A stretch of DNA of 64,000 bases. Source: an uncultured Verrucomicrobiae bacterium (GTDB taxonomy: Bacteria; Verrucomicrobiota; Verrucomicrobiia; Chthoniobacterales; Xiphinematobacteraceae). Under the pieces are notes generated by a model, which saw only the letters and a program-made list of their open reading frames with translations, searched no databases and was not told the origin of the DNA. The DNA is taken from NCBI GenBank assembly GCA_963706715.1, contig CAVPNI010000003.1, forward strand, positions 768,001 through 832,000, read 5' to 3'. Shown here in pieces: positions 34,618 to 37,600 of the stretch; within the stretch, counting starts at the first letter, position 1; every line of letters starts with the position of its first letter. The position numbers and the translations under genes were made by a program.

Positions 34618-37600
34618 ATGCTTGAGGCTGATAAATGTAGAGTAAATTATTGCCCAGGGAGTAGCACATCAGACATCAGTGCATTGAAGGAAACTAATAG
34701 CGATAAGTTTCACAAAGATCCGCCGTCATTTCCGGTCTCAGCAGCGCAACGCGAGATGTGGCTGGCTCAAAAATTGTTTCCCGAGCGCTCCTTTTCTATC
34801 GCTGAATATGCGGAAATCGATGGGCCGCTTGACATAGATACTTTCTCGAAGGCGATCACACTTACCGTGGCAAAAACCGCCGCACTACAGGCTCGATTTG
34901 CATTCATCAATGAGCAGTTGGTCCAGTCGTTTGAAATACCGGTTCATGAAGTGTTATCCGTTGTAGATTTGTGTGCATCTGAAGAAGCGCTTTCAGATGC
35001 GCATCACTGGATGCGAAAAGATCTTGCCCAGCCACGTCAACCTGAGGCGGGCGATCTTTTTATCTTTGTACTGTTTAAGCTCAGACCCGACCGTTTCATC
35101 TGGTATCAGCGCTATCAGCACATCATCATTGATGGATGTAGTCTTGCAATCATTGCCTGCCGTGTTGCCCAGATCTATGCCGCGTTGATTCATGAAGAGC
35201 CAATCCCAGAATCGGAAATGCTGGAATTTGACTTGCTAGCGCGGCACGACGCTGATTATCGAGGCTCTACACAGTTTCTTGCGGATAAGGCATTCTGGCA
35301 AGACTACCTAAACCGGGGCAATGAGCCGGCATGGCTATCCCTCCCTCCGGACCTGCGCGCCGATAGACAGAAATTGCGGGCTACGGCAAGTATTGCAGAG
35401 GAAGACATTCGTCGCTTGAAGCACATCACCCAGGCCATGGATGCACGCCAATCTCATCTCCTGATAGTAGCGCTTGGCATTCACTTTCACATCCTTACGG
35501 GTCAAACGCAGTTGAATTTCAGCCTTCCGGTTTCCAATCGGAGCAAGGATGAGATGGATACCCCAGGCATGACATCCAATGTCCTGCCATTGATCCTGCA
35601 GGTGAAGTCAAGCAGCTACCTGAGCAACATCGTCCAGGCTGTGGCCCATGAGGTCAGCCGAATTCTGCCGCACCAGCGTTATCGCATGGAAGAGATGCTG
35701 CGCGATGAGAGCATGGGACAAACTCGGTGGTTTGGGCCCACTATTAACCTGATAAAATTTGATCATGGTCCACCTTTTGCAGGGTGCCAATTGCGTTGGT
35801 TTATGCCATTAAACGACTTCGGTCGTGGATTTCACGTGACCTTCTATCAGCCTGGCAATGGTCAAGGACTGCAAGTTTTCTTCGAAGATGATACCGCTGT
35901 CCATACGTTCGCAGAATTGCAAGCCCATCAGCAGCTTTTTTTGAGCATTCTGGAAGCATTTATCCACAATCCGGATCAGACTGTGGAGGCTGTTGCAACC
36001 GGGTGTTTCGATCGATGGGGCCATGCGCTAAGCGGGAGTGTTTTTGCTCACCGTCGCAAGCCAATTGCAGCAGGTTGTCTACGATGGCGCCAACCTGCAC
36101 AGAATCTGGCTACTTTGGTTCGTGCGCTGGATTTTGGGAATTCCGCACCCAATCCGCTCGGCTTACCCAAGATTCTGCTGAAAAACCGTTTTGTTTGTGC
36201 AATGCGGTTAGAAGTTCTTAAGCAATGTTCGGGAGCTGCGCCAGGAACATTGCTGCGGATTGGACAGAATGATTGGGAGGTCGCCAGCGGCAGTGAAGAC
36301 GTCTGTATTGGACACTTTACCAGTCTCACAGGTGAAGCGCTGGATGCTAGAGAAATCGCGCAACAGGAAGGCCTCTCCGAAGGAGATTGCTTGCCAGAGA
36401 TTACGGACGATCAAGCAAACAGGCTGATGGAAACATATCAGCTCGTGCGAGATCATGAGTCCTTCTGGTCTGCGCGACTTGCTCGGTTTACTCCCCTTCA
36501 ATTTCCATTTGCGTGGAATCACAAAACATCCGAGGCGCCATCCTGGCAAATCAGTCCATGGCATTTACCCGAGGCATTCAAGCACTTTGCTCTTGAAGAA
36601 CGCTGTCAATATTTGATCAGTGTCTTGTGCGTTTATTGGGCACGTATTACAGGGGAAACCCAGTTTCAGATGGGATGGGGTCATAACCATTTAGCAAATG
36701 AGCAACCACCCAATTTCTATGCACAAACCGTTCCGATGGACGTCTCTATCGACCCAGAGGCAAATTTTGCTGAAGTCTATGAGAACATAGGAGAGGAAAT
36801 AGCTCGTTTGGAAAAACATCGAACATTTGCGATGGATCTTGTTGCGCGCCATATTGCACTGAGTGCAATAAGCAGTTTGCACATACCTCATCCTTGGAAG
36901 GTGGCCGTTGCGGTGTGGAATGGTGAAGGTGATGATACCTCCCTCGAAGCCGAAGTACACGGAGAGCTAGCCACCTTTCGAATTAATATGCGGGATGGCA
37001 GCTTCAGATGGCATTACGATGCATCGCGCGTATCAGGCAAACAGATTGATCGTATGACGGGGCATCTGCTGGAATTGACACAAACCGTGATGGCTTCAGA
37101 TGTGACCCCAGTAAAGCGGCTCAATTTACTACCTGAGTCTGAGCGGACACTACTACTACAAACGTGGAACGAGACGCAGAGGGACTATCCGGCCGATCAA
37201 TGCCTGCACCAGTTGTTTGAGCAACAGGTAGAGCGCACTCCTCATGCCATTGCTCTGGTGTATGAGGAAGAGACTCTCACCTATGCCGAACTCAATGCGC
37301 GAGCCAATCGGCTCGCCCATGAGCTTATCGAACTGGGTATCGAGCCAGACGTGCAGGTAGCCATTTGCGTTGAGCGCTCCCTGGCAATGATCGTAGGGCT
37401 GTTAGCCATCCTCAAGGCTGGTGGCGCCTATGTGCCACTGGACCCAGCCTACCCAGGTGAGCGACTGGCTCACATCCTGGCTGATGCAAATCCTCAGATC
37501 CTGTTAGCAGATGAAACAGGCCGCACTACCTTAGGCGAAGCCTTGCTCTCCCATGTTGTGCTCGATCCGAACACCCTGCCCAGCCAGCCGGAGACCAACC

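Follow-up and report, generated by a model that had tools for sequence, protein, structure and literature searches.

A nonribosomal peptide synthetase whose starter condensation domain probably took the place of a formyltransferase catalytic domain

How does a starter condensation domain come to sit on what looks like the remains of a formylation module? The question is raised by a nonribosomal peptide synthetase (NRPS) gene in the stretch of 64,000 nucleotides analysed here, which we call the window. ORF1 (34618..45444, 3608 aa, on the + strand with all of its features) reads Cs-FmtC-C*-A1-T1-C2-A2-T2-C3-A3-T3. Cs is the starter condensation domain (34729..35997; aa 38-460). FmtC is a formyltransferase linker and C-terminal domain without its catalytic N-domain (36037..36387; aa 474-590), and C* is half a condensation domain (36406..37155), made of the last N-lobe helix and the C-lobe and lacking HHxxxDG. 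Between Cs and this FmtC-C* remnant lies the fusion junction (35998..36036; aa 461-473), which varies in sequence and keeps its length across the chimeric family described below. A1 (37195..38682; pocket code DASTIAAVCK) and the carrier T1 (38725..38913; Pfam PP-binding aa 1370-1430), with its GGHS serine motif, follow.

The original prediction, made from the DNA letters, saw a complete starter-type C domain with the motif QHIIIDG, and this holds. Pfam Condensation covers aa 38-458, and the best PDB matches are RzmA-Cs (7C1K and 7C1H; E ~3e-56 over 420 aa), with CDA-C1 next. In the motif (35116..35136; Q167-H168-I-I-I-D172-G173), the catalytic His is kept: H168, D172, and G173 align with H140, D144, and G145 of RzmA. 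The first His of HHxxxDG is Gln in the window Cs, which differs in this respect from 16 of the 17 other aligned members. In RzmA, according to the available text of PMC7804268, the second His positions both substrates and a gate residue sets acyl length, a longer side chain giving a shorter acyl group. The equivalent of the RzmA gate residue R148 is L176 (35143), and the position is Ala in Serratia members and Gly in Photobacterium members. Ala and Gly fit the C8-C16 chains of the Serratia and Photobacterium products, and Leu hints at a shorter acyl chain than in either group. The window Cs is thus like the lipoinitiation domains RzmA-Cs, HolA-Cs, and CDA-C1, as these are described in the same available text (PMC7804268), in its full-length match, its second His, and its N-terminal position before A-T. 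It is unlike them in having Gln for the first His and in its separation from A1 by ~370 aa.

What fills that gap? The extra ~370 aa of the window protein consist of FmtC and a second C-lobe, and because Cs does not stand directly before A1, the module is a variant of the Cs-A-T module rather than a canonical one. In 15 chimeric locus rows, 543-554 aa separate the end of Cs from the A3 motif, as against a median of 182 aa in 112 ordinary starter rows (152-228 in 110 of them). Formyl_trans_C (PF02911) matches aa 486-583 (window 36073-36366; E 4.3e-6) with 27.3 bits against a cut-off of 21.1, and with 30.8 bits on the excised piece; LRWRQPAQN starts at 36079 and VASGSEDVCI occupies 36280-36309. 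The formyltransferase C-terminal similarity anticipated at aa ~480-590 is therefore present above the Pfam cut-off, although the relic begins slightly upstream of where it had been placed, at aa 474 (36037, SVFAHRRKP), within the Fmt inter-domain linker. C* gives a partial Pfam Condensation match, below cut-off (E 7.8e-4), that covers only the latter half of the profile (positions 191-455 of 456), in line with the motif-less half C-like domain expected ahead of A1. The catalytic N-domain is missing, as had also been claimed: Formyl_trans_N has no match in aa 1-861, and a profile built from NRPS F domains finds no F catalytic domain there or in the six frames of the window.

The original prediction had proposed a structure prediction for this region, and the half C domain was modelled confidently, in a normal C-A platform with A1. 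The model of aa 462-1261, predicted from an 81-row alignment, has a pLDDT of 92 and a pTM of 0.90; a single-sequence fold of aa 35-861, spanning Cs and the remnant, has a pLDDT of 36, and the confident model excludes Cs. In the predicted model C* has no N-lobe HHxxxDG and its C-lobe packs on A. C* and A superpose as a unit on McyB-C1A1 (8HLK; Z 54.4, rmsd 2.6 A, 633 aligned), starting at model residue 136 (aa 597) and C-domain residue 184; on SrfA-C the superposition starts from residue 197. The Foldseek list is headed by the C-A portions of Txo1 and Txo2. These fold-search lists are filled by A and C-A matches and carry no information on FmtC, and with aa 445-861 as query the only PDB sequence match is to the C-A linker. 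As modelled, C* is a C-lobe in its usual seat on A, and FmtC holds the chain position of the missing C-domain N-lobe.

Known initiation systems share parts of this arrangement. In LgrA, of linear gramicidin biosynthesis, an N-capping domain also precedes A-T, and F sits C-like relative to A (PMC10510592, available text). The LgrA F domain, of ~193 residues, stands directly before A with no FmtC-C* insert, unlike in the window protein, and the alignment of LgrA structures to the model begins only at about residue 373, in the A part. The icosalide synthetase likewise has a starter C within an unusual double-C arrangement (PMC10510592, available text). There, both C domains are catalytic and internal, whereas in the window protein the second is a motif-less half and lies in the initiation module.

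Where did the remnant come from? We pooled 266 homologues of aa 470-850, namely 37 and 84 from two word-indexed searches and the best 150 of 1263 representative-search matches, with overlap; the pool is redundant and top-ranked, so its counts are not population frequencies. Within this pool, including those best 150 of 1263, 213 of the 266 have, at the same point upstream, an F domain that is intact and shows the N-x-H..LP motif, as the original prediction of a formylating ancestor would have it. F without the motif precedes the remnant in 14 others, a starter C in 15 including the window protein; 18 start within the remnant and 6 are unclassified. The closest named F-type relative in the pool, again with the best 150 of 1263, is the F-bearing Glomeribacter NRPS P0003, 43% identical to aa 470-850 over 394 columns. 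Across FmtC-C*-A, identity to F-type starters is 37-43%, and the remnant closest to that of the window protein by identity is F-type (43-44%). Starters of Glomeribacter/Mycoavidus, Mycetohabitans, Photorhabdus, and rhizobia share a homologous FmtC-C*-A, but they keep F, with NYHDxPLP, where the window protein has Cs, and the literature searched links no product to them. F-type and chimeric proteins agree from the motif S-F/Y-x-x-x-R-R-P-x-A-A-G onwards and differ upstream of it, which places the breakpoint just where the F catalytic domain ends, on the F/linker boundary. Among protein clusters in the ESM Atlas, the best three are F-plus-FmtC proteins (0.90-0.94); family agreement is weak, and we treat this as a lead only.

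A remnant tree points the same way. It holds 40 rows chosen from 62, comprising 14 chimeric, 20 F-type, and 6 F-type outgroup rows, and the 14 chimeric and 20 F-type remnants form one clade (100/100) against the 6 outgroup rows. Because the chimeric remnants nest in an F-bearing clade with an F-type outgroup, F is likely the ancestral state. Could the lineage instead have had no formylating ancestor, with FmtC inserted into a tandem Cs-C, or with the F-type modules derived from the chimera? The root depends on the choice of outgroup, and branching within the 34-row clade is poorly supported, which leaves this reading some room. Yet every deeper relative sampled is F-type. F and FmtC are adjoining parts of a single Fmt-like enzyme, and it is at their linker that the retained piece starts, so that we give this reading hardly any credence. 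The reading we prefer is the one first predicted, in which Cs replaced the F of an ancestral formylating starter: the F-bearing clade and the breakpoint at the F/linker boundary argue well for the replacement as history. As function it is likely, and we infer that the cap itself was switched from formyl to acyl.

Other lineages show further fates of the same module. Burkholderia gladioli proteins P0018-P0024 and P0026 have F-FmtC-C*-A with a decayed F motif, AYRHAPP in place of NYHDxPLP, a second fate. A third is seen in P0033, P0034, P0143, and others, including one from Mycoavidus sp. SF9855, which have putative starts in the FmtC tail or C* and no capping domain; such putative start sites account for 18 of the 266 homologues, the best 150 of 1263 included.

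Is the chimeric layout peculiar to this genome? The original prediction had implied that it was unique, and this did not hold. Cs-FmtC-C*-A is shared by 18 proteins or more, found in Serratia, Photobacterium, Yersinia, and Enterobacillus as well as in metagenomes and the genome record of an insect. The named Serratia members are S. ureilytica, S. ficaria, S. microhaemolytica, S. inhibens, and S. montpellierensis; Enterobacillus tribolii, Yersinia nurmii/entomophaga, and several Photobacterium species are the other named members. The layout is thus recurrent; as for its being already characterised, no description of it was found in the literature searched, mostly open text (including the available portions of PMC7767323, PMC5209532, and PMC5532648). 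NCBIfam has no model for a Cs-FmtC-C*-A start. Three members carry the automated UniRef name 'Methionyl-tRNA formyltransferase', which indicates that annotation pipelines already detect the FmtC domain.

The layout is rare in the samples taken, and both of its halves occur there separately. None of the 398 scored genomes of the Mycoavidus family sample (3 unscored, 5 limited) has the full junction; among 401 genomes of the Serratia order sample, only the centre genome has it. The full layout was seen in none of 40 relatives of the source genome, and a contig scan of genomes with a single protein confirmed 0 of 28 candidates. SwrA, of serrawettin W2 biosynthesis, was suspected of sharing the layout on account of its size, but no SwrA-named or producer protein is among 5 matches and the suggestion is unsupported. 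The insect record is that of the gall midge Contarinia nasturtii, where P0149 (XP_031631245.1), on a 5.0-Mb contig, is a single-module Cs-FmtC-C*-A-T-TE protein; P0142, a Logan protein, is 51% identical in the remnant.

The members of the family most likely go back to a single old fusion. In a quick Cs tree, 19 chimeric starters fall on one side of a branch with 46 ordinary starters on the other (SH-aLRT 100); the near-duplicate P0141 was omitted, and the 46 ordinary rows were hand-picked from loci found with chimeric queries. Sampling of ordinary starters is accordingly biased towards those queries, and a closer non-chimeric sister of Cs may be absent from the tree. Fixed anchors on either side of the junction are 53 residues apart in 15 of the 18 chimeric proteins and 52, 55, and 57 residues apart in the others. 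Monophyly of the chimeric remnants is not rejected (p-AU 0.47), but these rows stay together in only 32% of bootstrap trees.

A recent, lineage-specific graft of a starter C onto a Glomeribacter/Mycoavidus-like F module in the source genome has some points in its favor. The window remnant is 43% identical to the F-type P0003 and 42% to the chimeric P0004, and among 18 chimeric copies it has the highest score on an F-type profile (399.5 bits), a score biased by F rows that were retrieved with the window query. The GC3 of the remnant (36037-37155) is 0.43-0.45, against 0.53 for Cs and 0.53-0.60 for the modules, a compositional mosaic; the host median is 0.47. A recent graft nonetheless fits poorly with the grouping of the window Cs with the other chimeric starters, with a junction spacing equal to that of Serratia, Yersinia, and Photobacterium members, and with a remnant monophyly that the data do not reject; we regard it as very unlikely. 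Under the single old fusion that we favor, recombination may later have refreshed the remnant, which would not amount to a new origin.

What does the remnant do? The dN/dS values of five Serratia-type pairs lie at 0.15-0.37 in FmtC, 0.10-0.17 in C*, and 0.035-0.09 in Cs; one further pair, which involves Enterobacillus, gives 0.38 and 0.34 near saturation. FmtC and C* of the Serratia-type copies are thus under purifying selection that is looser than on Cs, as expected of a scaffold. This selection, together with the platform in the predicted model, leads us to see the remnant as a probable structural adaptor. FmtC might instead play an active part, docking Cs, T1, or a partner in a way that acyl transfer needs, a possibility compatible with the history proposed here. 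Purifying selection on FmtC and its retention at fixed spacing in 18 of 18 aligned members would suit such a role. The domain erodes, however: it is below the Pfam cut-off or undetected in 9 of the 12 other full chimeric proteins scanned, and Serratia and Photobacterium members have lost its NPL loop. Other lineages, moreover, putatively start in the FmtC tail or C* (the 18 of 266 homologues above, the best 150 of 1263 included). We therefore consider an active FmtC unlikely, though it deserves some weight, and retain the passive adaptor as our working view.

The cluster to which this module belongs has two genes. ORF2 (45428..64000, +, running past the window to C3:843829, that is, on the contig C3; 10133 aa) holds nine C-A-T modules, and it ends, at C3:842300-843829, with tandem thioesterase motifs, GYSSGG and GHSYGG. 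There are 12 modules in all. We take the A1 code DASTIAAVCK to be Tyr-type, and the product, from codes read in the same way, to be approximately acyl-Tyr-Asp-Thr-X-X-Thr-Asn-Ala-Asp-X-Phe-Asn, where X is aliphatic. A1 (compared over 37168-38667) and A11 (C3:837170-838669) are 97.2% identical over 500 aa, with codes DASTIAAVCK and DAWTIAAVCK, a Tyr/Phe-type pair. Pfam finds two PPTase-family genes in the genome; a regular-expression scan for MbtH and PPTase gave no match, yet given those two genes the scan was insensitive. A1, C2, and A3 are 68-72% identical to collected NRPSs, including those of Burkholderia gladioli, Mycoavidus, and Photorhabdus. Because of this identity and a module GC3 above the host median, the cluster was probably acquired horizontally.

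How could the module have been built, and how would it work? We think it probable that this lipoinitiation module arose by nested swaps. A whole Fmt-type enzyme would first have replaced the N-lobe of a C domain, giving F-FmtC-C*-A with the C-lobe staying on A. In a step that the trees and the junction support, a complete starter C would then, once and long ago, have replaced F at the F/FmtC linker. In the present enzyme, A1 would load a Tyr-type residue on T1, and Cs would condense an acyl-CoA onto its amine. FmtC-C* would be an adaptor without catalytic activity, though needed for the structure: it would maintain the C-A platform and hold Cs in the place of F. The 12 modules would yield an N-acyl 12-residue peptide, which the tandem thioesterases would release.

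It is conceivable that the starter is dead or bypassed in the window copy and that the peptide carries no acyl group, or is formylated in trans by the housekeeping Fmt. The first His of the motif is Gln, one family member, P0192, has lost the whole motif, and formylation in trans by Fmt has been reported for the Met-starting glidonins (PMC10587159, available text). On the other hand, the second His, Asp, and Gly are intact, and the match to RzmA-Cs runs over its full 420 aa. For formylation in trans, the Tyr-type A1, rather than a Met-type domain, is a poor starting point, and no NRPS-type F gene or trans-acting F partner was found in the genome. Only two frames there contain Formyl_trans_N, of 222 and 316 aa and both distant from the cluster; from length and motif we read them as PurN and Fmt. 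A dead or bypassed starter strikes us as improbable, and an acylating one remains our preferred reading.

Acylation by chimeric starters is also supported indirectly, by analogy with relatives that have known acylated products. For the Serratia and Photobacterium relatives, A-domain code assignments and the dual E/C motif are presumed. A five-module NRPS of P. halotolerans has the same start layout and is presumably kailuin-like. The NRPS of the S. ureilytica type strain (5948 aa, in a 526-member Serratia cluster) begins with Cs-FmtC-C*-A and continues Thr-Ser-Ser-aliphatic-aliphatic plus TE. SphA, the stephensiolide synthetase of Serratia, is described as five modules, (C-A-PCP)1-5-TE, in papers whose main text, as available, does not contain 'formyl' (PMC9911388, PMC9581180); stephensiolides carry a fatty acyl chain (PMC9911388, PMC9581180). 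The S. ureilytica protein, which shows the SphA five-module signature together with the window layout, would be an orthologue of SphA (ATD12179.1), judging by that signature and the organism. It differs from the window protein in its other modules, in its gate (Ala rather than Leu), and in sequence across the junction (~35% identity).

The Photobacterium case is similar. The codes of P. galatheae KDM91475.1 spell Leu-Thr-Ser-Thr-Leu-Leu/Ile, and residues 1, 3, and 5 are each followed by a dual E/C domain. The ngercheumicins of strain S2753 are hexapeptides with a 3-hydroxyacyl group and contain three Leu, two Thr, and D-Ser, both D- and L-Leu being present (PMC3877902, available text). The available text of PMC8541647 ties the P. 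galatheae gene cluster to ngercheumicins computationally and by MS of the strain, so the assignment is putative. This putative ngercheumicin synthetase has the same start as the window protein, and its codes and epimerisation are collinear with the 3-hydroxyacyl product; unlike in the window protein, its FmtC is more eroded and its gate is Gly rather than Leu.

Why does the layout matter? The component parts and the likely product class, a lipopeptide, were already known; the layout is undescribed in the literature searched. SphA-like and ngercheumicin-like synthetases, published as C-A-PCP, would include ~370 unannotated residues that bear on construct design. We lean, if only somewhat, towards a general reading in which the starter of such known lipopeptide synthetases acts through a vestigial Fmt-C-lobe adaptor and does not touch A, so that the F/FmtC linker would be a natural, portable plug point. 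If so, formyl- and acyl-capping enzymes are exchangeable there with the C-A platform undisturbed, and cap engineering has a specific, testable junction. The change from a formyl to an acyl cap would be recorded in the module as a one-domain replacement with its scar preserved. The arrangement suggests structural reasons for keeping a C-lobe on the first A even after the loss of its catalytic half. The window copy may be among the least eroded members and, if so, a good chassis for swaps in both directions.

The flanks of the cluster (32591-34300 and C3:844835-847322) hold ilvD on one side and, on the other, a short ORF, which we take to be a transposase fragment, followed by an unannotated ORF of 559 aa; no tailoring or transport gene was seen adjoining the cluster. 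A second NRPS locus lies at C3:1-14288, with a partial ORF and another of 4173 aa that begins nearly at an A domain, and its A domains are ~50% identical to A1. Elsewhere in the window are an RHS/YD-repeat protein (2-6804, - strand) with DUF6531 and a weak transglutaminase-like match, preceded by an RCC1-repeat protein; an IS701 transposase beside an IS66 transposase in two ORFs (8602-11474, - strand); a SWIM and SNF2 helicase pair (16546-20136, - strand); and two tandem PanS-type transporters (30144-32335, + strand). The source genome is 3.04 Mb, and two genus-mates have genomes of 0.9 Mb that are 99% complete, which suggests that they are reduced symbiont relatives.
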